IMG/VR virus record: IMGVR_UViG_2579778856_000005
Length of the DNA stretch: 33,871 nt
Source of the DNA: a virus
Lineage: Duplodnaviria; Heunggongvirae; Uroviricota; Caudoviricetes
Reading direction: 5' to 3' (one strand)
Part shown: one piece after another, positions 3,167 through 33,871 of the stretch
Layout of the letters: each line of letters starts with the position of its first letter
How positions within the stretch are numbered: the first letter of the stretch is position 1
The notes under the pieces: generated by a model
Seen by the model: only the letters and a program-made list of their open reading frames with translations
Told to the model about the DNA's origin: nothing
Database searches by the model: none
Translations under genes and position numbers: made by a program

Positions 3167-3598
3167 GTGCCTGTTCCGTGGCCCACCGCCACACCGCCAG
3201 CAGGCTGGTTAAAGTGCGACGGGCGCGCCTTTACAAAAGAACAATATCCTGTTCTGGTCAGAGTCTACCCGACCCTCCGTCTTCCCGATTTGCGCGGTGA
3301 GTTTATCCGTGGATGGGACGGTGGTCGCAAGGTTGATACCGGGCGTGCGCTACTTTCATTTCAGGAAGGGACTATCGTATCCGGTTTTGATGATAATGAT
3401 ACCGGAGATATCAGTTCGCTCGGCTCTACACAATACGGATTTGGTGACGCTTTAACCTCTAATCAACTGGGGGTCTTAAATGGCAAAAAGTGGATATTTG
3501 ATGCATCCTCTAAAGGTGCACAAAGATATGACTGGTGGGCTTATGTATCAGCTCGCCCCCGCAATATCGCATTTAACTATATCGTGAGGGCGGCGTGA
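3167..3598 (+). CDS. Silent tail-fibre C-terminal cassette 3
   Basis: Same conserved block, unique ~70-aa tip, C-terminal RPRNIAFNYIVRAA. Confidence 0.75.
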   Translation: MPVPWPTATPPAGWLKCDGRAFTKEQYPVLVRVYPTLRLPDLRGEFIRGWDGGRKVDTGRALLSFQEGTIVSGFDDNDTGDISSLGSTQYGFGDALTSNQLGVLNGKKWIFDASSKGAQRYDWWAYVSARPRNIAFNYIVRAA

Positions 3599-3604
3599 TA
3601 CCGT

Positions 3605-4219
3605 TCAGCCGGCAAGCGCCAGTGGCGCTTCCGGCCAGCTGATTTCAGGTGCCTTGCTGATATCCAGTGCGTTCAGCTCGTCGATATAATCCAGCACGGC
3701 GTTCAGTTTTGCCGTTTCTTCTGGTTTCAGACTGCGACCAGCACGCAGTTTGAGGTTGATAAGATCGACGGACGCCATCGCCTGTTTCACCCGTTGCTGG
3801 CGTTGCTGTCTGGCAACCTCCAGTTCTGCGGCTCGCTGCCGTTCAGTATCGGTTACCCACGCCTCACCGTTCCAGGTATCCCATGGCGTGGCTGGCTGTT
3901 TTGTGGTGGTGTCCGCCGGGTAATCACCCGGTTGGGTAATCAGAACGGGGTTACCGTTCTCCGTGCTGTATACCGTCTCGCCGCGGTGATCAGGCACATG
4001 CTCCCACCCGTTCAGCGTGGCAGTCCGGCAAACCACGTAACCCGAAATTGCTTCCGGCGGTGCATCGGCGCACGAATGTGCCGGAGTACCCACCCCAAGG
4101 GCGAGATACTCCACAGAGGATGAGGTGTATTCCCGGGTTTCCTCGTCATAGTGATATACAGTGATATCGCCCGCTACAGTGGCGATACCGTTTTCATCCA
4201 GAACTGCAGTGTTACTCAT
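3605..4219 (-). CDS. Tail fibre assembly protein (Tfa family)
   Basis: 204 aa immediately downstream of the fibre gene (TAATG overlap). GEAWV motif and C-terminal LNAVLDYIDELNALDISKAPEISWPEAP, typical of lambda Tfa / Mu U-type chaperones. Confidence 0.85.
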   Translation of the reverse strand: MSNTAVLDENGIATVAGDITVYHYDEETREYTSSSVEYLALGVGTPAHSCADAPPEAISGYVVCRTATLNGWEHVPDHRGETVYSTENGNPVLITQPGDYPADTTTKQPATPWDTWNGEAWVTDTERQRAAELEVARQQRQQRVKQAMASVDLINLKLRAGRSLKPEETAKLNAVLDYIDELNALDISKAPEISWPEAPLALAG

Positions 4220-5550: not shown

Positions 5551-5552
5551 AA

Positions 5553-6131
5553 TCAACTGCTCCCGTGGTTATAACTGCCATCATGGATGGCGGTATTGTT
5601 ATAGCGAATGGCCACAGACTGATACTCCAGGCTGGCCAGATGGCAGCGGGCCGGTGCAAATGCAGCGAGCGTCTGACGCAGCATCGCGGCCTGATCGTTA
5701 GTAATGGGCTGTTTCAGAATAACGCGATAAACCGCCCAGGCGGCTGCATCTCCATGAACAAACAGTCCGTTATAGCTGCGATTGCCGTCGTAACTGAGAC
5801 GACCTGTGCCTTCAATCAGATCCACTTCACCAAAGCCAAAACGGCGGATAACTTCCCGGATTGACCACGGCGTCCCTTTATACCGGTGCAGTTCGATGGC
5901 TGCTTTTATAAGCATGCGGCGAACATCGTCCGATTCCGCCAGCTCCCAGCCATCGCCAGACAGTGAGAACTGCTCGCCCAGCCATGGCAGCGCGGAACTG
6001 TCGACGATATCGACGAGAAAGACCATCAGTACGCTCAGGTCGATGTTATCCAGCCGCCCTGCCAGTCTTCCCAGCGTCCTGAGACTGATATCACCCTCAA
6101 GCGGTGGCGGGAGTTGTAATGGCTCAGTCAT
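5553..6131 (-). CDS. Baseplate/tail protein, P2 gpI-like (Mu gp48-like)
   Basis: 192 aa from an ATG overlapping the upstream stop; sits between the J-like gene and the tail fibre. Family assignment by position and recall. Confidence 0.7.
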   Translation of the reverse strand: MTEPLQLPPPLEGDISLRTLGRLAGRLDNIDLSVLMVFLVDIVDSSALPWLGEQFSLSGDGWELAESDDVRRMLIKAAIELHRYKGTPWSIREVIRRFGFGEVDLIEGTGRLSYDGNRSYNGLFVHGDAAAWAVYRVILKQPITNDQAAMLRQTLAAFAPARCHLASLEYQSVAIRYNNTAIHDGSYNHGSS

Positions 6132-9567: not shown

Positions 9568-10451
9568 CACACACTCCTCGTCAGTATTCTGGCGGCCATT
9601 GCACTTAATCCCGGAGACATGCGGTTGAATGCTGTTCCGACGGCGTTAAGCTGCCCGGAAACGGTATCCAGAGCACCTGCAATATTTCTTTTGTCCACAC
9701 CACTCAGCGCAGACTGTGCCTGCTGTACATACGTGGCTGCTTCGCTGGCTGTTCTGGCCAGACTGATGGCATCGGGCATGGATTCAGAGAGTGCGTTAAA
9801 CGCCGGAACACTTTTCCCCAGAGCCCCGGAGATATTACCCAGTCCGCTCATCAGCCCCGGCACACGGGTCAGTGCGACAACGGGGTTATCCTTCATTTTC
9901 TGTGTCACCCGAACGGCGCTGATAGTGGTCTGGAGTACAGACTGCGCCTGTTTCGCATAGTTGACGCCGTTGCGGATGAACTGCGCCACCCCTGAAGGTG
10001 AAGGTATGGCACCGGAGACCGCCCCGACACCCGGGAGCTTCGTGCGTATTGCCGGTGGTTGCAGAGGATTTTTCGGGTCACCGGTGTATTCCCGGAGAGA
10101 CACGGTGGCACTGACAGCCAGCACGTTGCCGGTACTGTCAGTCTGCTCGCTGGTTGCAGTCACATCGGTGATCACGAACCAGCCGCGATAGTCACCGTTG
10201 CCGAAGACCAGCGCCAGTGCCTGATGGGCTTTCATGGCTGTTCGCAGTCTCGCCAGCTCCACATCGGGTACACAATAATGCTGATGGAAAACCAGAGTTA
10301 TCTGGATTTCGTCCAGCCTGTCGCCGACGAACTGCAGACCAGGCTTACCCCCGATGCGGGCATGCTCCGCATAATCGACGCCGAACGTGGCCTCGAAGCC
10401 GTCCCAGTAGGTAATCAGCTCAAACTCAATATCACCCAGTACGGCAAACAT
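9567..10451 (-). CDS. Tail protein with P2 gpU-like N-terminal domain and a long Ala/Ser-rich C-terminal extension
   Basis: 294 aa; the N-terminal ~125 aa (GKPGLQFVG..ITL..ALALVFGNGDYRGWFVITDVTATSEQ) resembles the gpU tail-terminator family. Intact only in this copy. Confidence 0.7.
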   Translation of the reverse strand: MFAVLGDIEFELITYWDGFEATFGVDYAEHARIGGKPGLQFVGDRLDEIQITLVFHQHYCVPDVELARLRTAMKAHQALALVFGNGDYRGWFVITDVTATSEQTDSTGNVLAVSATVSLREYTGDPKNPLQPPAIRTKLPGVGAVSGAIPSPSGVAQFIRNGVNYAKQAQSVLQTTISAVRVTQKMKDNPVVALTRVPGLMSGLGNISGALGKSVPAFNALSESMPDAISLARTASEAATYVQQAQSALSGVDKRNIAGALDTVSGQLNAVGTAFNRMSPGLSAMAARILTRSV

Positions 10452-13402
10452 CAGCGGTACTCCTTACGTTGTTTCTGAGCCAGCAGACGCTCCAGCATTT
10501 TTTCCAGCTCATGCAGACTCATATTCAGGGCACCAGTCAGTCCTGCAGGCGCTGTGGTTTCCCTGCCATTGAGGAAAAACTGAGGATTAAAGCTGACCTG
10601 GATACCACCAGACGTTCCACCGCCGGTTGCAGCTGCACCACGGCCTGAATATCCGGCAGCCAGGATTTCAGGCGAGGGGATACGGGGAACATCCGGTGTC
10701 ATCTCATTTGCCAGACGTTGCCCTGGTAAAATCGATGCCCGGGTGGAGAGCGGAATAGCGGGCATGGAAGACAAACTATTGATTACGGCTCCGATCGCAT
10801 TTTTAGCAGACGACATAAACCCATTGATATCGGGCAACGGCATACTGAAGCGAACACCTGAAGTGTTATCCCGTATTTCTGGCCCCTGAATGCTCACGGG
10901 CATTCTGGGGAGCAGTTCACTGGCCATTCGCTGCCCGGCCAGAGCTGCAAGCGGAGTGGTCCGCTGCAGGCCAATGGCGGCCCCCTGCGCGATATTGTCA
11001 CCAAAGCCCATAAACACGCGGCTCGGCGAATGAATGCCCAGCTTTTCGCTGAACCAGCCACTGATGCTGTCACCCATTCCGGTTACACTGGATTTGAGCG
11101 ACTCCCATTTGTTTTTGATACCGTTAATCAGACCGTCGACAAGATGGCCACCGAAGTCGGTGAACTTTGCCGGCAGATCAACACCAAGATATTTCAGCGC
11201 AGCTGCAAAGGCTTTATAGAGCAGACCTGCCGGCGACCAGTTAATCAGCAGCTTACCAGTTCCCGCGATACCGCCGTTAAAGGCTTCCTGAATGTCAGCC
11301 CAGCACTGTTTAAACCAGCTACTGATGCTGTCACCCATTCCGGTTACACTGGATTTGAGCGACCCCCATTTGTTTTTGATACCGTTAATCAGACCGTCGA
11401 TAAGATGGCCACCGAAGTCGGTGAACTTTGCCGGCAGAGCAACGCCGAAATATTTCAGCGCAGCCGCAAAGGCTTTATAGAGCAGGCCTGCCGGCGACCA
11501 GTTAATCAGCAACTTACCAATTCCCACAATGCCGCCGTTAAAGGCTTCCTGAATGTCAGCCCAGCGCTGTTTAAACCAACCACTGACAGCCCCCCAGTTG
11601 CGGTAGATAAGGTAAGCTGCTGTCGCGACAGCGGTGATAACGAGACCGATGGGATTCATCATCAGCGCTCGCCCAATCCAGAGAACGGCACGTGCAGCGC
11701 TCATAAAACCGCGAACGAGGCTGCCCGCCAGAACTTTGCTGAGTTTCAGTCCTCCGCTGGTCAGTCGGCTGAATCCAGTGACAAGCCAGCGTAATTTGCC
11801 ACCTTCTCCGAGTGCGGTAGTCAGTCGATGCCAGTTGGTCCGGAGTAAAACAGTAGTTTTCCAGACGTTCACAAAGGGGGAAATAAGGAGATTCAGCCCC
11901 AGTTTGAGACCAATAGTCGCTATCTTAATCGCAAGGAGCGCACTGATGAGCTTAAAAGCCCCACTGACAAATTGCGGGTGAGTCGCTACCCAGTGTTTTG
12001 TCCCCTGAATGAGTGGGAGCAGTTCCTGAGTCAGAGAAATAAAAGATGGAGCTAATTGATCGCCCAGCGTAATTGCCAGATCGCGACTGCTGACCATAAG
12101 TGTTTTAGTGGCTTCAAGGGGAGATTTCAGCCGCTGATCATAAGCACTGGCAAGCAAATCGTTATCCGCAGCCCTGAGAGCACCGGCACGGATCTCTCGA
12201 TATCTGTCCATGTTGGCCAGCATCGGGCGGATAAATGCCATGACCTGCATATCCGCGAACATATCGCCCAGACCAAAGTTTTTCGCCAGAGCCTGAAGTG
12301 CCTCATCTCTTGCCGTATCATTCTTTATTTTCATGGCTGATTTGAAGCCGGCCAGCGCTTCGGGGCTTTTGGCATTGAGGTAACGTTCTATAACACTCAA
12401 CATCCCTTCAATCGGAGAGATCCCCGCAGCTTTATAACTCGCAATAGATCCCTGCAAATCAATACCCAGATCAGCAAACTGTTTCTGAGTATCGCGGGCA
12501 AAAATTTTGGTAAGAAAGTTTTTAAAATTATTGGCTGCTTCGTCGGTGGAACCTGCACCGATTTTTGCTATCTGGAGACTGGCCCCGATTTCAGCAACAG
12601 CCTCTTTTCCACTGGCAATACCCGCCATCATTGGGGCCAGGGACTGCATCCACTTGACCTGATCCGGGATTTCAAATGACCCCTGGTCACCGGCATAAGC
12701 CATAATATTCTGAACGGCACCAAAATCTCTGGCCGCGCCTTTCAGGGAGTTTTGCCAGACTGCGGCCACTTTTGCCCAGTCCTGAGCAGACGTGCGTGTT
12801 GCCGTTGCCGCGCGGGCAATATCCGGCATCAGAAAACCGATATCTGACACATTATCAATATTGTCGCTGATGAGTGAACCCACCGCCTCCTGCAGCTCAT
12901 CCTGATACTGATTGTATTTAAGCGCCCAGCCTTTTATCTGTCCGGCAAGTGCATCCCGCGTTTTATTGTCATATTTTGCGGTGATCGACATATCAATCAT
13001 TTTGTCCTGAAAAGACATGGACTGCTGAACGGCAGGGGAAACCGTATGATAAACAGTCTGTGCCATGCCATACGCTTCAATCCCCTGACCATACAGCGCC
13101 ATGCGGTTAGCTTTCAGCGCATCACTGGTAGCGGATGCCGCTGACAGACGGCGCTGCTGGCGCTCAATTTGCTCCATGGTGCGGCTTACCCGCAGCAGCT
13201 CGCTGTTGAGATGCTGCATCCGGGAAGAACCCAGTTGACCATAACGTTCTGTTGCACGGGTTAAAGCGTTCTGACGTTCCTGCAGGCGGCGTGAGGTATC
13301 GCTCAGGGAATCAAGCGCACGGCGGGTACCGCTCATTGCAGAACGGAATGTGCTGCCAATCATCCCGCCGATAACAACGCCGACTGAAAACTGTCCCGAC
13401 AT
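10451..13402 (-). CDS. Tail tape measure protein (copy 1)
   Basis: 983 aa, N-terminal coiled coil, internal 86-aa tandem repeat, GGAGG RBS. Confidence 0.9.
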   Translation of the reverse strand: MSGQFSVGVVIGGMIGSTFRSAMSGTRRALDSLSDTSRRLQERQNALTRATERYGQLGSSRMQHLNSELLRVSRTMEQIERQQRRLSAASATSDALKANRMALYGQGIEAYGMAQTVYHTVSPAVQQSMSFQDKMIDMSITAKYDNKTRDALAGQIKGWALKYNQYQDELQEAVGSLISDNIDNVSDIGFLMPDIARAATATRTSAQDWAKVAAVWQNSLKGAARDFGAVQNIMAYAGDQGSFEIPDQVKWMQSLAPMMAGIASGKEAVAEIGASLQIAKIGAGSTDEAANNFKNFLTKIFARDTQKQFADLGIDLQGSIASYKAAGISPIEGMLSVIERYLNAKSPEALAGFKSAMKIKNDTARDEALQALAKNFGLGDMFADMQVMAFIRPMLANMDRYREIRAGALRAADNDLLASAYDQRLKSPLEATKTLMVSSRDLAITLGDQLAPSFISLTQELLPLIQGTKHWVATHPQFVSGAFKLISALLAIKIATIGLKLGLNLLISPFVNVWKTTVLLRTNWHRLTTALGEGGKLRWLVTGFSRLTSGGLKLSKVLAGSLVRGFMSAARAVLWIGRALMMNPIGLVITAVATAAYLIYRNWGAVSGWFKQRWADIQEAFNGGIVGIGKLLINWSPAGLLYKAFAAALKYFGVALPAKFTDFGGHLIDGLINGIKNKWGSLKSSVTGMGDSISSWFKQCWADIQEAFNGGIAGTGKLLINWSPAGLLYKAFAAALKYLGVDLPAKFTDFGGHLVDGLINGIKNKWESLKSSVTGMGDSISGWFSEKLGIHSPSRVFMGFGDNIAQGAAIGLQRTTPLAALAGQRMASELLPRMPVSIQGPEIRDNTSGVRFSMPLPDINGFMSSAKNAIGAVINSLSSMPAIPLSTRASILPGQRLANEMTPDVPRIPSPEILAAGYSGRGAAATGGGTSGGIQVSFNPQFFLNGRETTAPAGLTGALNMSLHELEKMLERLLAQKQRKEYR
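11040..11585. repeat. 258-bp in-frame tandem repeat inside the tape measure gene (two full copies plus a partial third)
   Basis: ccagc(c/t)actgatgctgtcacccattccggttacactggatttgagcga recurs at 11055 and 11313; the protein repeat is WFKQ(R/C)WADIQEAFNGG...SVTGMGDSIS. Confidence 0.8.
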
Positions 13403-13477
13403 AGTGGTTAACCTCCGGGGAAGGTGAAAAGACGTGAGGGGATAACGCAGAACAGCCGCTACTGGCGGCTGTCTGTA

Positions 13478-13895
13478 CTATGATTTGTCGCCGTACTCGC
13501 TTTTGATTTGCTCTTCAGCCTGCTCCAGCCACATCTCCAGATCGTCAGTATCGAGGGCATCAATCTCCCCCGGCTGAAACCGGAACCATCTCGCCAGCAG
13601 CCCCTGCGCCTGCGTCAGCGCCCTGGTTGCTCTCACCCATCCCCGTGATGAGCTGAAATCGTTTCTGTAACTGCAGGTAATCAGCCAGATCCATATTGTC
13701 GAGATCTTCCGGGAGAAGACCAGTACTGCGGGCAATCAGCGGTTCGTCCCAGTCTGCCGGGTTTTTGCTGATTTTGCGCACCTGCTTCAGGTCTTTTACC
13801 GTCAGGCGTTTCAGTTCAACCAGCTCAATTCTGGTGCCTGCAGCAGTGGTGAAGGGATAAGACAATTTAAAAGTATCGGATGGGGTCTGTGACAT
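13478..13895 (-). CDS. Tail assembly chaperone, putative frameshifted long form (GT / E+E' analogue)
   Basis: A second ORF (13478-13735) overlaps the 3' end of the chaperone ORF in the +1 (equivalently -2) frame and extends it by ~28 aa of plausible protein sequence (..IDALDTDDLEMWLEQAEEQIKSEYGDKS). Confidence 0.5.
13560..13895 (-). CDS. Tail assembly chaperone (lambda G / P2 E analogue), short form
   Basis: 111 aa, acidic, between tube and tape measure; AGGAG RBS. Confidence 0.8.
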   Translation of the reverse strand: MSQTPSDTFKLSYPFTTAAGTRIELVELKRLTVKDLKQVRKISKNPADWDEPLIARSTGLLPEDLDNMDLADYLQLQKRFQLITGMGESNQGADAGAGAAGEMVPVSAGGD

Positions 13896-13949
13896 GATTG
13901 TGCTCCTGTGTAAGTTCAGGGCAGTATGTCGGGAGAAGCGCGTGACGGA

Positions 13950-13990
13950 TATTAAAGGAGATTAAGAAGAAGGGGCCGGAGCCCCTGTGA
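13950..13990 (-). terminator. Putative intrinsic terminator/attenuator between tube region and chaperone
   Basis: Perfect palindrome AGGGGC-CGGA-GCCCCT (13971-13986) followed on the minus-strand transcript by a T-rich run (ttcttcttaatctccttt). Confidence 0.5.
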
Positions 13991-13992
13991 TG

Positions 13993-14274
13993 TCAGCAAG
14001 TGCGAAACCCCTTGCAGTTACGCAGGAAAGCGATGAGAAGCGTCTTTCCCTCAGATTTGCCGATGCCGGAGAACCAGTGGTCGGGAGGCTCCCATGCTTC
14101 AATCAAATCCGCCAGTTTGCGGGCCTTTGAACGTGTGCAGTCAATCGGGTCATTGGTTTTACGGGTATTAAAAAGGGTTTCCACCCCCGGAATATCAAGG
14201 AGGGTAAACCACGTACCATTTGACATGCCCAGTGCCGCACATCGTCCTCCTTTATCCGTCAGTTCAACACTCAC
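13993..14274 (-). CDS. Hypothetical small protein between tube and chaperone
   Basis: 93-codon open frame in a 380-bp gap; start codon ambiguous (GTG at 14274, or an internal ATG with a distant AAGGAGGA). Confidence 0.35.
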   Translation of the reverse strand: MSVELTDKGGRCAALGMSNGTWFTLLDIPGVETLFNTRKTNDPIDCTRSKARKLADLIEAWEPPDHWFSGIGKSEGKTLLIAFLRNCKGFRTC

Positions 14275-14276
14275 CG

Positions 14277-14798
14277 TCAGCCCCCGATATTGATACGGTA
14301 GTCAGTCAGTTGATCAACACCGCCGACCCGGAAGATGTTGGCCAGATAGTCCAGTTGCAGCAGCTCTTCACCATCCAGTACCTGTCTGATATACGTGCAG
14401 GTGAAGCTACTGGAGAACTCGGCGTTCTCGTGCTGTTTGAACGTCCCCAGCGGGTTCTTCTTGAACATAATCGTCAGGAAGGTGACCAGCGGGATTTCGT
14501 CAATCAGCCCCTGCGAGCTGTAGCGCTGGACGCTGGAACGACACTGCAGTGCCAGCGACCTGTACGGGTTCGCGGCAGACAGCATCGCATCGCGGTAAAA
14601 GCTGTTCCATTTGATTTCGCCTTCCAGCTTGTCAAAACCAGCCGGGAGTTCCACCTTACCCACCATCCCCAGCGCCTTGTGTTCCTGCATAATCATGGAG
14701 ACATCGGGGAGTTTAACTTCCTCAGCCCGTCCCAGCAGGTTAGTACCATCCAGATAGATGTTGGCATTCGTGATGCGGTTTATCTCAATCTTTGACAT
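14277..14798 (-). CDS. Tail tube protein (copy 1)
   Basis: 173 aa, ATGA overlap with the sheath stop; contractile-tail tube family by size and position. Confidence 0.9.
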   Translation of the reverse strand: MSKIEINRITNANIYLDGTNLLGRAEEVKLPDVSMIMQEHKALGMVGKVELPAGFDKLEGEIKWNSFYRDAMLSAANPYRSLALQCRSSVQRYSSQGLIDEIPLVTFLTIMFKKNPLGTFKQHENAEFSSSFTCTYIRQVLDGEELLQLDYLANIFRVGGVDQLTDYRINIGG

Positions 14799-16089
14799 CA
14801 GTTGCCCCCTTTCAGGGTTAACAGGTATTCCGAGGTGATCTCAGTCTCAAACGTCAGTCGCTCCAGCGGCGGTGGTGGCGTATATTTGTAGCTCAGCAAC
14901 AGGTGCCCGGCGGCCAGCTCCGTCTCCGGATTGCGGGCCGGATCAAACCAGCAACGGAAGCCCAGTACCGCACCATCACCAGTCATTTTGCGACCGTAGG
15001 CGTTGACCGACTCCGTCAGTGCATCAATCAGCGCCTGAGTAATCGGCATGTCGATGTACTGCTGGCTGAAATAACGAATGGACTCGTTGATCACATCACC
15101 GGTGCGGCGAACGTTCTCAAAGTTACGCATATGGGTGACCGTTGGCCATGCTGCCGTCCGGTTACCCCACAGACGAAGGCCGCTGCCGTAACTGCTGAAT
15201 ACCGTGGTGATCCCCTGTTCGTTAAGCAGGTTCACCTCACTCTGCGGGTCATCAATCATCGCGGACAGCTGGCGCTCCACGCCGGTGATCCCCAGAATCT
15301 CCTGATTGGAGGATGACCACCAGTAGCCCTTGTCCAGATCGACTCTGGCACGCAGACCTGCTGCACGCTGGCTGAGCGGCTCCAGACGCTCTGTGTTTGT
15401 CACCGGGTCATATACCTTCACATGCGGATAGCACAGACGGACGCGGTCGGAGCTGGTATTGAAGTTGATGGTGCCTTCCGGGCCACGACCTGCCAGAGCC
15501 TGTGCAAAGGTGGTACCGACAGGCGCATCAATGTAGGTTACCGCGCCCAGCTTCTCTGCCATGGCGATAAGCTCAACTGCGACACTCTTCTGGGTGCAGA
15601 ACACCGGCGCAATCAGAATTTTGGCGAAATAGCCGTACAGGTTGAAGCTGTCGTTAAGCAGCTTCATGCCGGTTCGGTTTCCGGCGCTGTTCACCCCGCC
15701 GATGATGTCCGCCGCAGTCACCTTCGACGGGTCCGCGTACTCATAGCTCACCTTCACGCTGCCACCGGCCTCAATAGCCTTGCCCAGGTTCGTGAGCACA
15801 CCCGCCTGCGCATCAACACGGTAGTCCGTGTTCGCCGTGTGGGTGGTGCTGCCTTCACTGTTTTTCACCACCACATTAGCGACAACCGGATGCGCCAGTC
15901 TGGCCTGCCCTGTCGATTTGTCAAAGGTAACCACCTCATCCTCGATCGCCGTTTTATGTTTCGCCGGGTCGAGGACGTTAATGACCAGAACGGTGCCTGC
16001 ACCATGGTCATAAATCGCATCCAGCGCCTGCGGAATGGTAAAGCCGGTGAACTGGCTGCCAAATGCCGCTGCGTCTTTCTCAGACAGGC
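14798..16089 (-). pseudogene. Tail sheath protein, 5'-truncated fragment (lacks ~45 N-terminal codons)
   Basis: Matches the intact sheath at 20649-22076 up to the duplication junction at 16089, then reads into out-of-frame U-derived sequence. Confidence 0.8.
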
Positions 16090-16302
16090 TGTTCGCAGTC
16101 TCGCCAGCTCCACATCGGGTACACAATAATGCTGATGGAAAACCAGAGTTATCTGGATTTCGTCCAGCCTGTCGCCGACGAACTGCAGACCAGGCTTACC
16201 CCCGATGCGGGCATGCTCCGCATAATCGACGCCGAACGTGGCCTCGAAGCCGTCCCAGTAGGTAATCAGCTCAAACTCAATATCACCCAGTACGGCAAAC
16301 AT
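16090..16302 (-). pseudogene. gpU-like tail protein, 3'-truncated fragment (first 71 codons)
   Basis: Identical to the N-terminus of the 9567-10451 protein (MFAVLGDIEFELITYWDGFEATFGVDYAEHARIGGKPGLQFVG...) then fused out of frame to sheath antisense sequence. Confidence 0.8.
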
Positions 16303-19253
16303 CAGCGGTACTCCTTACGTTGTTTCTGAGCCAGCAGACGCTCCAGCATTTTTTCCAGCTCATGCAGACTCATATTCAGGGCACCAGTCAGTCCTGCAGG
16401 CGCTGTGGTTTCCCTGCCATTGAGGAAAAACTGAGGATTAAAGCTGACCTGGATACCACCAGACGTTCCACCGCCGGTTGCAGCTGCACCACGGCCTGAA
16501 TATCCGGCAGCCAGGATTTCAGGCGAGGGGATACGGGGAACATCCGGTGTCATCTCATTTGCCAGACGTTGCCCTGGTAAAATCGATGCCCGGGTGGAGA
16601 GCGGAATAACGGGCATGGAAGACAAACTATTGATTACGGCTCCGATCGCATTTTTAGCAGACGACATAAACCCATTGATATCGGGCAACGGCATACTGAA
16701 GCGAACACCTGAAGTGTTATCCCGTATTTCTGGCCCCTGAATGCTCACGGGCATTCTGGGGAGCAGTTCACTGGCCATTCGCTGCCCGGCCAGAGCTGCA
16801 AGCGGAGTGGTCCGCTGCAGGCCAATGGCGGCCCCCTGCGCGATATTGTCACCAAAGCCCATAAACACGCGGCTCGGCGAATGAATGCCCAGCTTTTCGC
16901 TGAACCAGCCACTGATGCTGTCGCCCATTCCGGTTACACTGGATTTGAGCGACTCCCATTTGTTTTTGATACCGTTAATCAGACCATCGACAAGATGGCC
17001 ACCGAAGTCGGTAAACTTTGCCGGCAGATCAACACCAAGATATTTCAGCGCAGCTGCAAAGGCTTTATAGAGCAGACCTGCCGGCGACCAGTTAATCAGC
17101 AGCTTACCAGTTCCCGCGATACCGCCGTTAAAGGCTTCCTGAATGTCAGCCCAGCATTGTTTAAACCAGCTACTGATGCTGTCACCCATTCCGGTTACAC
17201 TGGATTTGAGCGACCCCCATTTGTTTTTGATACCGTTAATCAAACCGTCGATAAGATGGCCACCGAAGTCGGTGAACTTTGCCGGCAGAGTAACGCCGAA
17301 ATATTTCAGCGCAGCCGCAAAGGCTTTATAGAGCAGGCCTGCCGGCGACCAGTTAATCAGCAGCTTACCAGTTCCCGCGATACCGCCGTTAAAGGCTTCC
17401 TGAATGTCAGCCCAGCGCTGTTTAAACCAGCCACTGACTGCCCCCCAGTTGCGGTAGATAAGGTAAGCTGCTGCCGCGACAGCGGTGATAACGAGACCGA
17501 TGGGATTCATCATCAGCGCTCGCCCAATCCAGAGAACGGCACGTGCAGCGCTCATAAAACCGCGAACGAGGCTGCCCGCCAGAACTTTGCTGAGTTTCAG
17601 TCCTCCGCTGGTCAGTCGGCTGAATCCAGTGACAAGCCAGCGTAATTTGCCACCTTCTCCGAGTGCGGTAGTCAGTCGATGCCAGTTGGTCCGGAGTAAA
17701 ACAGCAGTTTTCCAGACGTTCACAAAGGGGGAAATAAGGAGATTCAGCCCCAGTTTGAGACCAACAGTCGCTATCTTAATCGCAAGGAGCGCACTGATGA
17801 GCTTAAAAGCCCCACTGACAAATTGCGGGTGAGTCGCCACCCAGTGTTTTGTCCCCTGAATGAGTGGGAGCAAGTCCTGAGTCAGAGAAATAAAAGATGG
17901 AGCTAATTGATCGCCCAGCGTAATTGCCAGATCGCGACTGCTGACCATAAGTGTTTTAGTGGCTTCAAGGGGAGATTTCAGCCGCTGATCATAAGCACTG
18001 GCAAGCAAATCGTTATCCGCAGCCCTGAGAGCACCGGCACGGATCTCTCGATATCTGTCCATGTTGGCCAGCATCGGGCGGATAAATGCCATGACCTGCA
18101 TATCCGCGAACATATCGCCCAGACCAAAGTTTTTCGCCAGAGCCTGAAGTGCCTCATCTCTTGCCGTATCATTCTTTATTTTCATGGCTGATTTGAAGCC
18201 GGCCAGCGCTTCGGGGCTTTTGGCATTGAGGTAACGTTCTATAACACTCAACATCCCTTCAATCGGAGAGATCCCCGCAGCTTTATAACTCGCAATAGAT
18301 CCCTGCAAATCAATACCCAGATCAGCAAACTGTTTCTGAGTATCGCGGGCAAAAATTTTGGTAAGAAAGTTTTTAAAATTATTGGCTGCTTCGTCGGTGG
18401 AACCTGCACCGATTTTTGCTATCTGGAGACTGGCCCCGATTTCAGCAACAGCCTCTTTTCCACTGGCAAGACCCGCCATCATTGGGGCCAGGGACTGCAT
18501 CCACTTGACCTGATCCGGGATTTCAAATGACCCCTGGTCACCGGCATAAGCCATAATATTCTGAACGGCACCAAAATCTCTGGCCGCACCTTTCAGGGAG
18601 TTTTGCCAGACTGCGGCCACTTTTGCCCAGTCCTGAGCAGACGTGCGTGTTGCCGTTGCCGCGCGGGCAATATCCGGCATCAGAAAACCGATATCTGACA
18701 CATTATCAATATTGTCGCTGATGAGTGAACCCATCGCCTCCTGCAGCTCATCCTGATACTGATTGTATTTAAGCGCCCAGCCTTTTATCTGTCCGGCAAG
18801 TGCATCCCGCGTTTTATTGTCATATTTTGCGGTGATCGACATATCAATCATTTTGTCCTGAAAAGACATGGACTGCTGAACGGCAGGGGAAACCGTATGA
18901 TAAACAGTCTGTGCCATGCCATACGCTTCAATCCCCTGACCATACAGCGCCATGCGGTTAGCTTTCAGCGCATCACTGGTAGCGGATGCCGCTGACAGAC
19001 GGCGCTGCTGGCGCTCAATTTGCTCCATGGTGCGGCTTACCCGCAGCAGCTCGCTGTTGAGATGCTGCATCCGGGAAGAACCCAGTTGACCATAACGTTC
19101 TGTTGCACGGGTTAAAGCGTTCTGACGTTCCTGCAGGCGGCGTGAGGTATCGCTCAGGGAATCAAGCGCACGGCGGGTACCGCTCATTGCAGAACGGAAT
19201 GTGCTGCCAATCATCCCGCCGATAACAACGCCGACTGAAAACTGTCCCGACAT
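16302..19253 (-). CDS. Tail tape measure protein (copy 2)
   Basis: 983 aa; about 9 amino-acid differences from copy 1. Confidence 0.9.
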   Translation of the reverse strand: MSGQFSVGVVIGGMIGSTFRSAMSGTRRALDSLSDTSRRLQERQNALTRATERYGQLGSSRMQHLNSELLRVSRTMEQIERQQRRLSAASATSDALKANRMALYGQGIEAYGMAQTVYHTVSPAVQQSMSFQDKMIDMSITAKYDNKTRDALAGQIKGWALKYNQYQDELQEAMGSLISDNIDNVSDIGFLMPDIARAATATRTSAQDWAKVAAVWQNSLKGAARDFGAVQNIMAYAGDQGSFEIPDQVKWMQSLAPMMAGLASGKEAVAEIGASLQIAKIGAGSTDEAANNFKNFLTKIFARDTQKQFADLGIDLQGSIASYKAAGISPIEGMLSVIERYLNAKSPEALAGFKSAMKIKNDTARDEALQALAKNFGLGDMFADMQVMAFIRPMLANMDRYREIRAGALRAADNDLLASAYDQRLKSPLEATKTLMVSSRDLAITLGDQLAPSFISLTQDLLPLIQGTKHWVATHPQFVSGAFKLISALLAIKIATVGLKLGLNLLISPFVNVWKTAVLLRTNWHRLTTALGEGGKLRWLVTGFSRLTSGGLKLSKVLAGSLVRGFMSAARAVLWIGRALMMNPIGLVITAVAAAAYLIYRNWGAVSGWFKQRWADIQEAFNGGIAGTGKLLINWSPAGLLYKAFAAALKYFGVTLPAKFTDFGGHLIDGLINGIKNKWGSLKSSVTGMGDSISSWFKQCWADIQEAFNGGIAGTGKLLINWSPAGLLYKAFAAALKYLGVDLPAKFTDFGGHLVDGLINGIKNKWESLKSSVTGMGDSISGWFSEKLGIHSPSRVFMGFGDNIAQGAAIGLQRTTPLAALAGQRMASELLPRMPVSIQGPEIRDNTSGVRFSMPLPDINGFMSSAKNAIGAVINSLSSMPVIPLSTRASILPGQRLANEMTPDVPRIPSPEILAAGYSGRGAAATGGGTSGGIQVSFNPQFFLNGRETTAPAGLTGALNMSLHELEKMLERLLAQKQRKEYR
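16891..17436. repeat. 258-bp tandem repeat inside tape measure gene, copy 2
   Basis: Same repeat as 11040-11585, offset by 5,851 bp. Confidence 0.8.
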
Positions 19254-19410
19254 AGTGGTTAACCTCCGGGGAAGGTGAAAAGACGTGAGGGGATAACGCA
19301 GAACAGCCGCTACTGGCGGCTGTCTGTACTATGATTTGTCGCCGTACTCGCTTTTGATTTGCTCTTCAGCCTGCTCCAGCCACATCTCCAGATCGTCAGT
19401 ATCGAGGGCA

Positions 19411-19746
19411 TCAATCTCCCCCGGCTGAAACCGGAACCATCTCGCCAGCAGCCCCTGCGCCTGCGTCAGCGCCCTGGTTGCTCTCACCCATCCCCGTGAT
19501 GAGCTGAAATCGTTTCTGTAACTGCAGGTAATCAGCCAGATCCATATTGTCGAGATCCTCCGGGAGAAGACCAGTACTGCGGGCAATCAGCGGTTCGTCC
19601 CAGTCTGCCGGGTTTTTGCTGATTTTGCGCACCTGCTTCAGGTCTTTTACCGTCAGGCGTTTCAGTTCAACCAGCTCAATTCTGGTGCCTGCAGCAGTGG
19701 TGAAGGGATAAGACAATTTAAAAGTATCGGATGGGGTCTGTGACAT
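19411..19746 (-). CDS. Tail assembly chaperone (copy 2)
   Basis: Identical to 13560-13895; overlapping +1-frame ORF at 19329-19586. Confidence 0.8.
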   Translation of the reverse strand: MSQTPSDTFKLSYPFTTAAGTRIELVELKRLTVKDLKQVRKISKNPADWDEPLIARSTGLLPEDLDNMDLADYLQLQKRFQLITGMGESNQGADAGAGAAGEMVPVSAGGD

Positions 19747-19843
19747 GATTGTGCTCCTGTGTAAGTTCAGGGCAGTATGTCGGGAGAAGCGCGTGACGGA
19801 TATTAAAGGAGATTAAGAAGAAGGGGCCGGAGCCCCTGTGATG

Positions 19844-20125
19844 TCAGCAAGTGCGAAACCCCTTGCAGTTACGCAGGAAAGCGATGAGAAGCGTCTTTCC
19901 CTCAGATTTGCCGATGCCGGAGAACCAGTGGTCGGGAGGCTCCCATGCTTCAATCAAATCCGCCAGTTTGCGGGCCTTTGAACGTGTGCAGTCAATCGGG
20001 TCATTGGTTTTACGGGTATTAAAAAGGGTTTCCACCCCCGGAATATCAAGGAGGGTAAACCACGTACCATTTGACATGCCCAGTGCCGCACATCGTCCTC
20101 CTTTATCCGTCAGTTCAACACTCAC
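19844..20125 (-). CDS. Hypothetical small protein (copy 2)
   Basis: Duplicate of 13993-14274. Confidence 0.35.
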   Translation of the reverse strand: MSVELTDKGGRCAALGMSNGTWFTLLDIPGVETLFNTRKTNDPIDCTRSKARKLADLIEAWEPPDHWFSGIGKSEGKTLLIAFLRNCKGFRTC

Positions 20126-20127
20126 CG

Positions 20128-20649
20128 TCAGCCCCCGATATTGATACGGTAGTCAGTCAGTTGATCAACACCGCCGACCCGGAAGATGTTGGCCAGATAG
20201 TCCAGTTGCAGCAGCTCTTCACCATCCAGTACCTGTCTGATATACGTGCAGGTGAAGCTACTGGAGAACTCGGCGTTCTCGTGCTGTTTGAACGTCCCCA
20301 GCGGGTTCTTCTTGAACATAATCGTCAGGAAGGTGACCAGCGGGATTTCGTCAATCAGCCCCTGCGAGCTGTAGCGCTGGACGCTGGAACGACACTGCAG
20401 TGCCAGCGACCTGTACGGGTTCGCGGCAGACAGCATCGCATCGCGGTAAAAGCTGTTCCATTTGATTTCGCCTTCCAGTTTGTCAAAACCAGCCGGGAGT
20501 TCCACCTTACCCACCATCCCCAGCGCCTTGTGTTCCTGCATAATCATGGAGACATCGGGGAGTTTGACTTCCTCAGCCCGTCCCAGCAGGTTAGTACCAT
20601 CCAGATAGATGTTGGCATTCGTGATGCGGTTTATCTCAATCTTTGACAT
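20128..20649 (-). CDS. Tail tube protein (copy 2)
   Basis: Protein identical to copy 1. Confidence 0.9.
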   Translation of the reverse strand: MSKIEINRITNANIYLDGTNLLGRAEEVKLPDVSMIMQEHKALGMVGKVELPAGFDKLEGEIKWNSFYRDAMLSAANPYRSLALQCRSSVQRYSSQGLIDEIPLVTFLTIMFKKNPLGTFKQHENAEFSSSFTCTYIRQVLDGEELLQLDYLANIFRVGGVDQLTDYRINIGG

Positions 20650-22076
20650 CAGTTGCCCCCTTTCAGGGTTAACAGGTATTCCGAGGTGATCTCAGTCTCA
20701 AACGTCAGTCGCTCCAGCGGCGGTGGTGGCGTATATTTGTAGCTCAGCAACAGGTGCCCGGCGGCCAGCTCCGTCTCCGGATTGCGGGCCGGATCAAACC
20801 AGCAACGGAAGCCCAGTACCGCACCATCACCAGTCATTTTGCGACCGTAGGCGTTGACCGACTCCGTCAGTGCATCAATCAGCGCCTGAGTAATCGGCAT
20901 GTCGATGTACTGCTGGCTGAAATAACGAATGGACTCGTTGATCACATCACCGGTGCGGCGAACGTTCTCAAAGTTACGCATATGGGTGACCGTTGGCCAT
21001 GCTGCCGTCCGGTTACCCCACAGACGAAGGCCGCTGCCGTAACTGCTGAATACCGTGGTGATCCCCTGTTCGTTAAGCAGGTTCACCTCACTCTGCGGGT
21101 CATCAATCATCGCGGACAGCTGGCGCTCCACGCCGGTGATCCCCAGAATCTCCTGATTGGAGGATGACCACCAGTAGCCCTTGTCCAGATCGACTCTGGC
21201 ACGCAGACCTGCTGCACGCTGGCTGAGCGGCTCCAGACGCTCTGTGTTTGTCACCGGGTCATATACCTTCACATGCGGATAGCACAGACGGACGCGGTCG
21301 GAGCTGGTATTGAAGTTGATGGTGCCTTCCGGGCCACGACCTGCCAGAGCCTGTGCAAAGGTGGTACCGACAGGCGCATCAATGTAGGTTACCGCGCCCA
21401 GCTTCTCTGCCATGGCGATAAGCTCAACTGCGACACTCTTCTGGGTGCAGAACACCGGCGCAATCAGAATTTTGGCGAAATAGCCGTACAGGTTGAAGCT
21501 GTCGTTAAGCAGCTTCATGCCGGTTCGGTTTCCGGCGCTGTTCCCCCCGCCGATGATGTCCGCCGCAGTCACCTTCGACGGGTCCGCGTACTCATAGCTC
21601 ACCTTCACGCTGCCACCGGCCTCAATAGCCTTGCCCAGGTTCGTGAGCACACCCGCCTGCGCATCAACACGGTAGTCCGTGTTCGCCGTGTGGGTGGTGC
21701 TGCCTTCACTGTTTTTCACCACCACATTAGCGACAACCGGATGCGCCAGTCTGGCCTGCCCTGTCGATTTGTCAAAGGTAACCACCTCATCCTCGATCGC
21801 CGTTTTATGTTTCGCCGGGTCGAGGACGTTAATGACCAGAACGGTGCCTGCACCATGGTCATAAATCGCATCCAGCGCCTGCGGAATGGTAAAGCCGGTG
21901 AACTGGCTGCCAAATGCCGCTGCGTCTTTCTCAGACAGGCACTGTACCAGCGTATTGACATCCCCCATCGGGGCGGTACCAATCAGGCCAATAACGGCAG
22001 ATTTCACCGTTTTAACCGGGCGGGCACCGTTTTCCACCTCAATGGTTTCGGGACCATGCAGATAGTTAGCTGCCAT
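20649..22076 (-). CDS. Tail sheath protein (intact copy)
   Basis: 475 aa, MAANYLHGPETIEVENGARPVKTVKSAVIGLIGTAP..; contractile sheath family. Confidence 0.9.
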   Translation of the reverse strand: MAANYLHGPETIEVENGARPVKTVKSAVIGLIGTAPMGDVNTLVQCLSEKDAAAFGSQFTGFTIPQALDAIYDHGAGTVLVINVLDPAKHKTAIEDEVVTFDKSTGQARLAHPVVANVVVKNSEGSTTHTANTDYRVDAQAGVLTNLGKAIEAGGSVKVSYEYADPSKVTAADIIGGGNSAGNRTGMKLLNDSFNLYGYFAKILIAPVFCTQKSVAVELIAMAEKLGAVTYIDAPVGTTFAQALAGRGPEGTINFNTSSDRVRLCYPHVKVYDPVTNTERLEPLSQRAAGLRARVDLDKGYWWSSSNQEILGITGVERQLSAMIDDPQSEVNLLNEQGITTVFSSYGSGLRLWGNRTAAWPTVTHMRNFENVRRTGDVINESIRYFSQQYIDMPITQALIDALTESVNAYGRKMTGDGAVLGFRCWFDPARNPETELAAGHLLLSYKYTPPPPLERLTFETEITSEYLLTLKGGN

Positions 22077-31408: not shown

Positions 31409-32055
31409 TTCTGTAATCCTTCCCGTTCATCCAGTAGCGCGTTTATCTGGTTTCGCCAGCGACGACATTGCCCTGCGTTGTCGATGATGTTGGCAAGGAC
31501 GTCAAGCTGGGAGACACCCGAATTGCGTAACCGGGCGTCAGCGGTTTCAGGTTGCCCGGTCGCTGCGCCAGTGCCGGTGCCAGCGGCGGCAACTGAGTCT
31601 GAATGACCGGTGTCGACGGATGCGTTGTCGTATCCGAGTGCGGCGTTGTACTGGCGCACGAAACCGCGAGTAAACACGCACTCAATGGGATGACTCTTAC
31701 CTTTTTCATCAATCCAGCGCTGTGTGACATCGTTAATTTGCCCCTGTAGTTGTTTGTTCCGGCTCTCCAGTTGAGCAATCTGCTCAAGATAACCGGCTTC
31801 AGCCCGCTGCCCGGCGGCCACCTGCTCCTGATACCGTCTGGCCCAGGCCCGCAGCGCAGCATTCTCAAGCGTTGCCTGCTCCGTTTTGTACGCGTCAAAT
31901 GCTGACTGCAACTGACTTAGCGCGGTATCACCGTCACGCTTTGCAGAGTCATGACCACTTCTGTATCCCATGGCATACAGGCCGACCAGAAAGGCATTGA
32001 TAAGAATGGCCAGCAGAATGCCGCGCCACGGCAGCTTTTTAACCAGATGCCACAC
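31405..32055 (-). CDS. i-spanin (Rz-like)
   Basis: Likely GTG start at 32055 preceded by GGGGAGG. N-terminal TM segment (GILLAILINAFLVGLYAMG) then a long coiled coil; contains an embedded +1-frame lipoprotein ORF. Confidence 0.6.
   Translation of the reverse strand: MWHLVKKLPWRGILLAILINAFLVGLYAMGYRSGHDSAKRDGDTALSQLQSAFDAYKTEQATLENAALRAWARRYQEQVAAGQRAEAGYLEQIAQLESRNKQLQGQINDVTQRWIDEKGKSHPIECVFTRGFVRQYNAALGYDNASVDTGHSDSVAAAGTGTGAATGQPETADARLRNSGVSQLDVLANIIDNAGQCRRWRNQINALLDEREGLQK
31443..31709 (-). CDS. o-spanin (Rz1-like), embedded in the i-spanin gene
   Basis: 88 aa from MKKVRVIPLSACLL; lipobox L-S-A-C, Pro-rich mature part. Confidence 0.6.
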   Translation of the reverse strand: MKKVRVIPLSACLLAVSCASTTPHSDTTTHPSTPVIQTQLPPLAPALAQRPGNLKPLTPGYAIRVSPSLTSLPTSSTTQGNVVAGETR

Positions 32056-32779
32056 AACTGCTGCCTCCCCATGTGAGATATCGCGGTGCCAGTTCGCGCA
32101 GGATGCGCTGCGGATAATGGCGGTTCTCCCGCCAGCTGGCAGTGCTGCGTCCGGCATTCACCGTGGCGACATGACCAAACCAGCGGGTGCTGTCCAGCCC
32201 TTTTTGTGATGCAAGCCGCCTGTCCCGCTGTACCCAGCCCAGACCACCGTTATAGCCCGACAGTGTCATGGCCATACGCTCGCAGTCACTGGCGGCGCTG
32301 ACGCGCTGCCACAGCCAGCGGTCATAGCTGACCAGCGCCCGGATGGCCCATGCCGGATTAAATGGCTCACGGCTGTTAAGCCCCGGCATCAACTGACTTA
32401 TCCAGTCGGCGGTGGCGGGCATGAACTGCGCCAGTCCCTGAGCGCCAACCGGCGAGATCGCATCAGGTCGCCAGCCGCTTTCCTGATGCAGTTGCGCAGC
32501 GAAATCAGCCACCGGCGCAGACAGTCCCCATTCAAGCCGGGCATTACGGATCACATCATCGCGATACTGCAGCGCTGCCTGCGGAGGCTGCGCTGCGCGG
32601 GCCTGACTGAAGAAGCCGCCACACCAGAGCAACATTGCGACAAAGAATACCCGTGCCATATGAACCAGAAAGGTCCCGGCGCGGACTGACAGGCGTTCGG
32701 TTCTGATGAAGACCCTAAAGGCTTCGAAAGCCAGTTTCAGGGACATGCATACAATCCAGGTGATCTGCGGCCAGTTCAT
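32039..32779 (-). CDS. Endolysin, lytic transglycosylase (SLT domain)
   Basis: Contains EsGwRPDAiSPvGAqGLaQfMPaTA, the SLT catalytic-Glu region. ATG at 32779 lies 2 nt after the holin-like stop. Alternative ATG at 32659 would give a classic Sec signal peptide (MARVFFVAMLLWCGGFFSQARA). Confidence 0.8.
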   Translation of the reverse strand: MNWPQITWIVCMSLKLAFEAFRVFIRTERLSVRAGTFLVHMARVFFVAMLLWCGGFFSQARAAQPPQAALQYRDDVIRNARLEWGLSAPVADFAAQLHQESGWRPDAISPVGAQGLAQFMPATADWISQLMPGLNSREPFNPAWAIRALVSYDRWLWQRVSAASDCERMAMTLSGYNGGLGWVQRDRRLASQKGLDSTRWFGHVATVNAGRSTASWRENRHYPQRILRELAPRYLTWGGSSCVASG

Positions 32780-32781
32780 GA

Positions 32782-33132
32782 TTAAAGCCCCATCGCAACA
32801 GCCAGACAGACCGCTGCAACAATCAGTGCACGGCGGATTAACGCAGCAGAAAACACCAGGTGAAGGCCGGTCTGTACCGGGAAACGCCCATCAGCCATCA
32901 GCCTGTCGTCATGTTTCAGGTACTGACCGGGACGGGCTTTGGGGAAGAGCGAACGGTCAAGCCAGTAACCCAGCACTGCTGCCAGCGTGATGAGTGCCAG
33001 CTTGTAGATCACAACAGGCAACTGCTGTGGCGAGACCAGAGCGATGGTGCCCAGCAACAGCACTGAGGTCAGCAGCCAGCCGCTGAGGCGAGGTTTTTTA
33101 ACAGGGGGAATGAATTTTTTCAGGTTTTTCAT
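32782..33132 (-). CDS. Putative holin / small membrane protein
   Basis: 116 aa from the ATG at 33132 (AAGGAGA RBS) with three hydrophobic segments; first gene of the lysis cluster. Confidence 0.5.
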   Translation of the reverse strand: MKNLKKFIPPVKKPRLSGWLLTSVLLLGTIALVSPQQLPVVIYKLALITLAAVLGYWLDRSLFPKARPGQYLKHDDRLMADGRFPVQTGLHLVFSAALIRRALIVAAVCLAVAMGL

Positions 33133-33261
33133 GTGTGTCTCCTTGTCTGGTGGAGACAGCATCACAAATACAGGGCGCGAAGGATTTTAAAGCGCGTTAA
33201 GAGAGCCGGGGATACGGGATGTGCAGGATAAACGATGAATTATTCACAGAGGAGAATACGA

Positions 33262-33871
33262 TATGACGCAGACACTGAATCCGGTCATCACTGTCACCGT
33301 GTCCGGTCCTGTGGGCAGCGGTAAAAGTTACGTACTGGCGCGAATAGAGGAAGTGGTGAAACAGGAATTCGGAAACAGCGTCATTGTCGACGCCGCAGAC
33401 GTGGACGGTGAGCGCCGTATGAGTGGGGATGATCTGAGCACATGGCAGAAACCACGGGCTGGCACAGTGATCAGGCTGGAGGAATACACGGGACAGGGCC
33501 TGTTGTCATACGGCGAGGAGCGTATCTGTCGGACGAATGAGCTGCTGGATGTTATATGCCCCACGGGCCGGCAACCCTGGATACTGCCCGATGCACTGCA
33601 TGCCACCATTGCGGCACTGATGACAGTTTACGATCAGGAGCTGCTCATGAAGGAGTTACGTAAACTCACTGGTCAGTCAACAGAATGTTGTTCGTCCCCG
33701 AAGTACGGCAAACAGGAACACATCCCGATTAACCAGCCTCCCCGGTTCTTCGACGAATACCTTCTGACACCGGAAAATAAAGCTGAGCATGAAGAGATCA
33801 AAGCGGCGTTGTTCCGGGAAATCAGGAAGATTGCTGAAATGCAACTGGAGGGCGGGCTGGACAGAGTGATG
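33262..33871 (+). CDS. Hypothetical P-loop NTPase, 3'-partial (runs off window end)
   Basis: ATG at 33262 with GAGGAGAA RBS; Walker A motif GPVGSGKS at residues 15-22; no stop codon before the window end. Not listed in the ORF track because it is unterminated; translated by hand. Confidence 0.6.

Follow-up and report, generated by a model that had tools for sequence, protein, structure and literature searches.

In its minimal and canonical form, a P-loop NTPase domain is built from five beta-loop-alpha units, and strand 3 carries the Walker B acid at its tip (PMC7758060). Much smaller versions have been made in the laboratory, where P-loop prototypes of about 50 residues were found to bind nucleotides, to transfer phosphoryl groups and to oligomerise (PMC10119929). 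In phage BcepMu, the early and late arms of the genome are divergent, and the slot between the immunity repressor and the holin varies among its relatives: it is occupied by gp18-20 in BcepMu and by a DUF2441 protein in Klebsiella phage KP12. Here, we describe a gene lying in that slot in a prophage of Escherichia coli. It was found at the right-hand end of a 33,871-nucleotide stretch of viral DNA (IMG/VR record IMGVR_UViG_2579778856_000005), which we call the window, and it encodes a Walker A protein whose conserved part is a domain of about 75 residues. The new element is that a miniature P-loop domain, restricted to phages and joined to interchangeable tails, is now recognised.

Of 5426 complete E. 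coli genomes, 583-636 carry a chromosomal prophage to which the window region is 99.5-100% identical; the region shows the same identity to Escherichia phage PhiKM, a phage assigned to Bcepmuvirus. The prophage is BcepMu-like (Bcepmuvirus-type), not Mu-like, and the left end of the window is the host gene aroA. A complete copy of the locus is found in E. coli 4/1-1, where the late genes, the SLT gene and the holin gene (minus strand) are followed by the mini-P-loop gene (plus), a 134-aa ORF (minus), a 71-aa ORF (plus), a Dam methylase gene (plus) and an HTH repressor gene (minus), and then by a ner-like gene, a transposase gene, an ExeA-type MuB analogue, Gam, GemA and Mor (plus), up to ycaL. 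Early and late arms are thus divergent in the window's prophage, as in BcepMu. Because the mini-P-loop gene stands at the natural boundary of these arms, its orientation is unremarkable and a comparison with Mu is uninformative. A preliminary description of the window had stressed that Mu has no leftward gene at this position, an argument that proved off target given the Bcepmuvirus-type prophage and the divergent arms of that group; it had also called the gene the only plus-strand gene in the prophage part of the window, which the plus-strand tail-collar ORFs listed in Table 1 contradict. On the other hand, the clear match to a conserved Mu-like early or middle gene that it had named as a refutation was not found: no conserved early or middle gene of Mu or BcepMu matched, and no homologue was present at the syntenic position in BcepMu or KP12.

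The neighbourhood on the early side is compact and variable. The convergent 134-aa ORF (phrog_2266) overlaps the 3' end of the mini-P-loop gene by 25 bp, and its start overlaps the divergent start of the 71-aa ORF (phrog_4490) by 2 bp (L001 13268-13886), so that there is no room for promoters there. An obligate partnership between the mini-P-loop protein and the 134-aa protein was considered and rejected, since 247-aa alleles of the former persist at two loci where the latter is deleted (L019 and L024). In two other E. coli prophages of the lineage, the block formed by the 134-aa ORF, the 71-aa ORF and the Dam gene is replaced, by a 297-aa ORF and a 153-aa membrane protein in one (L034 8018-9308) and by ORFs of 328 and 196 aa in the other (L026 6515-8173). 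The replacement ORFs gave zero matches in Pfam and PADLOC and are therefore candidate unknown cargo. When PADLOC was run on the 134-aa and 71-aa proteins and on the alternative cargo, only a Dam-type methyltransferase was matched.

The window allele corresponds to WP_000194951.1, a 242-aa protein named "hypothetical protein" in RefSeq, and the 203 amino acids encoded in the window are all identical to those of the complete copy in 4/1-1 (203/203). From that copy, the stop codon lies 39 codons past the window edge. The gene is therefore truncated in the window, as had been reported, and the loss is small. The preliminary description had held that a stop shortly after the edge, revealing a short unremarkable protein, would count against its reading of the gene; the stop is indeed close, but the protein is not unremarkable. 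The full-length protein matched the HMM of phrog_3787 over residues 1-242 of 242 (E 4.9e-170), which places it in that family. The ribosome-binding site, described earlier as strong, lies 8 nt upstream of the ATG and is kept in diverged relatives, its core GAGGA being invariant in an alignment of six diverged loci from E. coli, Citrobacter and Salmonella-type prophages. The neighbour previously called holin-like is confirmed by its PF13272 match, and it is followed on the minus strand by the SLT transglycosylase gene and then by a Mu gp27-like small terminase gene.

Table 1. Coordinates of the features discussed, in window numbering.
Feature	Position	Strand	Remarks
Host gene aroA	1-1284		Left end of the window
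Gin/Hin-type serine invertase	1540-2241	-	
Phage Tail Collar ORFs	2184-2612, 2653-3126, 3167-3598	+	Share a 268-nt repeat
Tail-fibre assembly gene	3605-4219		Faced by the three collar ORFs
Expressed tail-fibre gene	4219-5556		Faced by the three collar ORFs
Tandem duplication (5851 bp)	10236-16086, 16087-21937		About 99.5% identical; about 27 internal mismatches
Holin gene	32782-33132	-	Holin_2-3 family, PF13272, E 1e-41
Divergent intergenic region, holin/mini-P-loop gene	33133..33262	.	130 bp; two conserved blocks
Inverted repeat TGTCTCC-N9-GGAGACA	33136-33158	-	Read in the minus-strand mRNA
Conserved block TTTTAAAGCGCGTTAAGAG	33185-33203		Alignment of E. coli, Citrobacter and Salmonella-type loci
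Conserved block GCAGGAT	33223-33229		Same alignment
Ribosome-binding site AGGAG	33250-33254	+	8 nt before ATG; read directly
Mini-P-loop ORF, codons 1-203 of 242	33263..33871	+	Translation; ATG at 33263; exits the window end
N-terminal mini-P-loop domain, aa 1-75	33263..33487	+	
Walker A GPVGSGKS, aa 15-22	33305..33328	+	Translation; conserved over 54 representatives
Walker-B-like strand VIRLEE, aa 69-74	33467..33484	+	Ends in conserved acid E74; predicted strand 68-75
Helical Z module, aa 85-139	33515..33679	+	BLASTP matches to P0024, P0028, P0057

The distribution of the gene was examined by megablast in the complete E. coli genomes. The gene was found at 639 places in 583 of the 5426 genomes, and the adjacent lysis cassette at 705 places in 636 of them. 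About 90% of the E. coli prophages of this BcepMu-like lineage thus carry the gene, which is near-core there and not sporadic. In each of the more than 24 loci from IMG/VR, Citrobacter and Salmonella-type prophages, a homologue was present with the same spacing to the holin gene. When E. coli alleles were compared in pairs, dN/dS ranged from 0.1 to 0.5, in head and tail alike, and these ratios indicate that the gene is under purifying selection. Taken with the invariant ribosome-binding site, the constant position beside the holin and the presence at 639 against 705 places, they identify it as a genuine coding gene. The natural alleles are 141, 158, 182, 242 and 247 aa long, of which the three shortest are truncated and mosaic, and one copy (P0019) is frameshifted. 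The GC content of the gene is 0.52-0.56, compared with 0.55-0.63 in the late genes.

These counts bear on the proposal that the gene is an accessory one of the moron type. The variable interval between holin and repressor and the mosaic alleles are in keeping with it; the expected sporadic presence is not what was observed in the E. coli lineage. Presence across relatives had been put forward as a check: of the 705 lysis-cassette places 639 have the gene, while KP12 and BcepMu lack it. The family is rare, with about 60 IMG/VR contigs over two scans and 3 of 50,697 phage genome records, which by tblastn are PhiKM and two distant homologues of the head. A profile scan of genome contigs was dominated by generic P-loop patterns and recovered one locus. 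As a separate observation, the gene is 100% identical to the 4/1-1 allele, whereas the adjacent holin/SLT segment is only 96.6% identical (window 32039-33871 against NZ_CP023844), and synonymous divergence between alleles is unequal, with a dS of about 0.2 in the head against about 0.07 in the tail. Such unequal identity and unequal dS point to likely recombination breakpoints in or next to the mini-P-loop gene.

We then turn to the protein itself. An exhaustive HMMER scan of 1.84e9 representative proteins returned 65 matches, almost all limited to residues 1-75, the part that we call the head; a word-indexed search with the same protein returned E. coli relatives only. Some proteins consist of the head alone and measure 71-90 aa; in others, which are 125-364 aa long, the head is N-terminal and the tails behind it are unrelated. 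Stand-alone heads came from Pseudomonas (one of 75 aa), Yersinia (one of 71 aa) and Acinetobacter prophages and from IMG/VR contigs, and all stand-alone or short-tailed homologues were in phages or prophages. These data establish the head as an autonomous, phage-restricted domain with variable tails.

Conservation was scored over 54 representatives below 80% identity, drawn from 142 unique domains. In the Walker A motif, G20 and K21 were found in 100% of them, G15 and S/T22 in 98% and G18 in 85%; along helix 1 the values were 98% for I28, 94% for L32 and 89% for G37, and further downstream 93% for E50, 78% for P64 and 94% for E74, the last reaching 100% of ungapped sequences. The head motifs are retained at 30-40% identity across genera. 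The Walker A motif that had been read at residues 15-22 is therefore present and, with G20 and K21 fully conserved, is no chance match. The elements follow one another in the order strand 1, Walker A, helix 1, strand 2, a loop with E50, W61 and P64, and strand 3. An AF2 model of residues 1-80, built from a 30-sequence alignment, was moderately confident (pLDDT 67.9, pTM 0.56). It places a strand at 8-14, a helix at 21-39 and two further strands at 40-43 and 68-75, with Walker A between the first strand and the helix and a poorly defined loop at 45-56; E74 terminates the last, hydrophobic strand. As modelled, the head is made of three strands and one helix, which is below the five-unit minimum of P-loop NTPases. 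The earlier name "P-loop NTPase" consequently holds for the Walker A motif but not for a full NTPase, the motifs being confined to a three-strand mini-domain of about 75 aa. Since three strands cannot close a P-loop core, the head may be homo-oligomeric.

Comparisons with known families and folds gave little above threshold. In Pfam, AAA_30, KAP, AAA_22 and T2SSE scored 12-17 bits over residues 3-50, all sub-threshold, and the best ATPase score was 16.9-19.4 bits over residues 3-52 only, against gathering cut-offs of 20-33; the curated families checked at the gathering threshold were AAA_30, AAA_22, ABC_tran, KAP_NTPase, T2SSE and Zeta_toxin. The NCBIfam search gave no match. In PADLOC-DB v2 the best hit covered the P-loop only and was not significant (E 0.003), leaving unsupported the defence or anti-defence role that had been suggested. 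Foldseek found nothing at E below 0.39 when the head model was compared to the PDB, and in BFVD the model matched a 72-aa phage homologue (E 3.7e-6). A PDB profile search matched only the Walker A/helix 1 part of ABC proteins, CMP kinase, PilT and UreG, with two exceptions, namely the designed ATPase 9jix (residues 8-76) and the engineered phosphate-loop protein 6c2u. The structure and profile comparisons thus agree, weakly, on a P-loop relationship. Stand-alone homologues match the first ~75 positions of phrog_3787. Literature searches on phrog_3787, WP_000194951 and PhiKM returned nothing relevant.

Unlike the head, the tails vary. The long relatives of the protein come from Salmonella enterica and Citrobacter braakii, and BLASTP comparisons among them revealed at least half a dozen tail modules recombined in differing orders. 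Residues 94-239 of P0029, for instance, correspond to residues 198-343 of P0037 (79%), residues 211-326 of P0038 to residues 100-215 of P0043 (65%) and residues 84-223 of P0051 to residues 201-340 of P0052 (81%). The Z module of the window protein (residues 85-139) is C-terminal in the Salmonella proteins P0024 (residues 200-253, 42%) and P0028 (residues 211-240, 63%); it is found as well in P0057 (residues 97-139, 52%) and P0058, both of which have N-termini that are not P-loops. In enterobacterial BcepMu-like prophages, the tails are therefore combinatorially recombined behind a constant head. No tail module matched Pfam, and with NCBIfam, PHROG and PADLOC included, neither the protein, nor the tails of its mosaic relatives, nor the adjacent and alternative cargo yielded a family that was informative. 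Two candidates were discarded in the course of this comparison: the long matches of P0046 and P0071 were repeat-protein artefacts, and a likeness, seen by eye, of a C-terminal W module to P0030, P0035 and P0039 was not significant by BLASTP. A full-length AF2 model (13-sequence alignment) was unusable, with a pLDDT of 42; its prediction of helices at 83-135 and 175-246 and of a disordered linker at 136-174 is accordingly unreliable.

The contexts of the homologues in other phages are heterogeneous. In the commonest order, the holin, endolysin and spanin genes are followed by the mini-P-loop homologue and then by the HNH, TerS and TerL genes. Of the 26 non-redundant other loci, 12 have the homologue 0-770 bp ahead of an HNH gene, with TerS/TerL next (L006, L037, L050, L052, L055-L057, L064, L067, L069, L071 and L075); five of these 12 place it immediately behind spanin-like genes, and at two (L056 and L057) the stop codon of the homologue overlaps the start of the HNH gene. 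The position between spanin and HNH-TerS-TerL is fixed in HK97-like cos-type phages and prophages despite protein identities of 40-50%. Elsewhere, a Pseudomonas homologue stands first in an early operon, ahead of ERF/YqaJ; that of a 130-kb Vibrio phage lies between thymidylate synthase and DHFR (a thyA-frd context), near ribonucleotide reductase; and in contigs of 79 and 217 kb homologues lie upstream of an NAD-dependent ligase gene. One metagenomic protein (P0081, L046 1919-2398) carries a bona fide PG_binding_1 domain (E 4.7e-15) fused to the mini P-loop. This fusion was set aside as a functional clue, as it is a singleton on a 2.9-kb contig and no second example was found.

The spacer between the holin and the mini-P-loop gene was described earlier as a divergent promoter region of ~130 bp. 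The 130-bp spacer is there, but a scan for sigma-70 consensus promoters around the gene and the spacer found none; a terminator scan of the sequences flanking the gene found none either. Two blocks are conserved in the spacer (Table 1). The longer one reads ...CTTTAAAATCC on the minus strand and holds a TAAAAT element resembling a -10 box, and block and element together would fit a late promoter of the lysis operon that depends on a Mor/C-type activator. In the minus-strand mRNA, the inverted repeat pairs the Shine-Dalgarno sequence of the holin gene with an upstream complement. The predicted hairpin (-14.2 kcal/mol, z -2.3) occludes the start codon as well, both of its arms are invariant in Citrobacter and Salmonella-type loci, and it may control holin translation.

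Two other features of the window were noted. Its part from 1540 to 5556 resembles the Mu G segment in that it seems to form an invertible tail-fibre switch with several cassettes, in which the three collar ORFs face the expressed tail-fibre gene and its assembly gene; standing on the plus strand beside a serine invertase gene, these ORFs are alternative tail-fibre cassettes of the prophage. Further on, the 5851-bp tandem duplication spans a 983-aa tape-measure gene, the genes for the chaperones and the tube, and the greater part of the sheath gene, whose left copy is truncated (442 against 475 aa). Its junction was found in none of the 636 prophage-carrying complete E. coli genomes, which makes it a strain-specific duplication or an assembly artefact.

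The above findings suggested a working model for the protein, to which we assign a probability of about 40%: a phosphate-binding, oligomerising mini-P-loop head is joined to partner-specific, shuffled tails, the whole being encoded by a genuine BcepMu-like prophage gene. In this model the head may bind the phosphates of an NTP, or a related phosphorylated ligand, via K21 and S22, and E74 and/or E50 could hold the Mg2+; both assignments are tentative. The head would probably act as a homo-oligomer, as a binding switch or a sequestering module and not as a motor or a metabolic enzyme, though with low confidence. The shuffled tail modules might confer partner specificity, and the gene could be transcribed from the divergent region that it shares with the late lysis promoter; these last two steps are also put forward with caution. 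Shuffled tails are the pattern expected of a protein facing variable targets in the host or in rival phages. One extension of the model would make the head, there taken as a natural autonomous minimal P-loop of ~70 residues and so as a living equivalent of the laboratory prototypes, the source of oligomers that bind or sequester nucleotides, perhaps signalling nucleotides or NTPs; phages would deploy it, either by itself or linked to exchangeable targeting modules, in conflict with the host or with rival phages. We regard this extension as unlikely. Several points weigh against the working model itself: conflict cargo is not usually near-core in a lineage as this gene is, the contexts of the homologues are heterogeneous (lysis/HNH-terminase, thyA-frd, DNA ligase and early operon), the head model is only moderately confident, and the promoter and family searches found nothing.

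Several other explanations have to be weighed against this model. The recurrent placement of the homologues would suit a late accessory factor for lysis or DNA packaging, such as a protein that senses nucleotides and modulates lysis timing or HNH/terminase cleavage: the gene is holin-adjacent in all BcepMu-like loci, and the 12 HNH-linked loci, the five positions directly after spanin-like genes, the two stop-start overlaps and the PG_binding_1 fusion point the same way. The lysis-terminase junction is, however, a classic insertion site for accessory genes, and at a junction that accepts inserted genes adjacency may reflect only a permissive site. The window gene is, moreover, on the strand opposite the lysis/packaging operon, the 12 HNH loci may all belong to a single phage lineage, the fusion comes from one short contig only, and other homologues lie in early or nucleotide-metabolism regions. 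Overall, we consider such a factor unlikely. The Vibrio phage homologue among thymidylate synthase, DHFR and ribonucleotide reductase genes brings to mind a primitive nucleotide kinase, or else a protein that regulates nucleotide metabolism; P-loop prototypes catalyse weak adenylate-kinase-like transfer (PMC10119929) and as one metagenomic phage record labels a homologue as thymidylate/uridylate kinase. That label is automatic and based on the Walker A region; NMP-binding and LID regions are missing, the BcepMu-like temperate phages have no other nucleotide-metabolism genes in the region examined, and variable tails would be unexpected in a metabolic enzyme. A kinase of this kind is thus improbable.

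Little probability is also left for the view of the preliminary description, in which the protein is a conventional P-loop NTPase acting as a prophage defence or anti-defence effector and carried as a moron. The Walker A motif, weak sub-threshold matches to AAA_30, KAP, HerA, Csx3-AAA and mad8, the location in a variable interval near a Dam methylase gene and the mosaic alleles would all be consistent with it. Five units are needed for such an NTPase (PMC7758060), whereas the P-loop part here comprises three strands with a single helix, and helices or disorder are predicted for the remainder; all family matches are below cut-off and cover residues 3-50 only, PADLOC gave no significant match, the gene is present in ~90% of lineage members, and homologues lie within DNA-metabolism clusters of lytic phages. 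Finally, the truncated and mosaic alleles of 141, 158 and 182 aa, the frameshifted copy and the lack of a detected promoter could suggest that a larger ATPase gene has decayed to this remnant, or that the ORF is spurious and functionless. This we judge most improbable in view of the purifying selection, the strong and conserved ribosome-binding site, the motifs kept at 30-40% identity across genera and the independent stand-alone forms in unrelated phages; furthermore, no larger parent family was found among the 1.84e9 proteins.

Roughly one of every nine complete E. coli genomes, clinical isolates in many cases, contains the gene, which has no annotation. If its head is a self-sufficient three-strand module, it is smaller than the minimum accepted for the P-loop NTPase fold and would offer a natural test case for the origin of P-loop enzymes from short beta-(P-loop)-alpha fragments. 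The constant head with shuffled tails, together with the recurrent placement at the boundary of lysis and packaging genes, define a new family of small phage proteins that is open to experiment. If, instead, the head were a relic without activity or an ordinary accessory protein, the locus would be of local interest only.

How the protein differs from known systems can be stated for each of them. The genes of BcepMu gp18-gp20 occupy the same slot as the mini-P-loop gene, between immunity repressor and holin, but they have no sequence similarity to it and the opposite orientation. phrog_3787, a family of unknown function, merges the widespread head with a lineage-specific tail. NCBI names truncated alleles "ABC transporter ATPase" or "KAP family NTPase", and what they have in common with these families is Walker A and the next helix; the LSGGQ motif, the Q-loop and the H-loop of ABC ATPases are missing from the 242-aa sequence, ABC_tran stays below its cut-off of 25 and KAP_NTPase scores 13.9 bits against a cut-off of 20. 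Compared to kinase-GTPase-type cores (thymidylate kinase, APS kinase, SRP GTPases and UreG/HypB), the head is smaller, with ~75 residues and three predicted strands, and it lacks LID, NMP-binding, switch and arginine-finger elements. The nearest likenesses in size are the P-loop prototypes and mini-ATPases (6c2u, 9jix and PMC10119929), which are synthetic; what the head shares with them is an idealised P-loop sequence and not descent.
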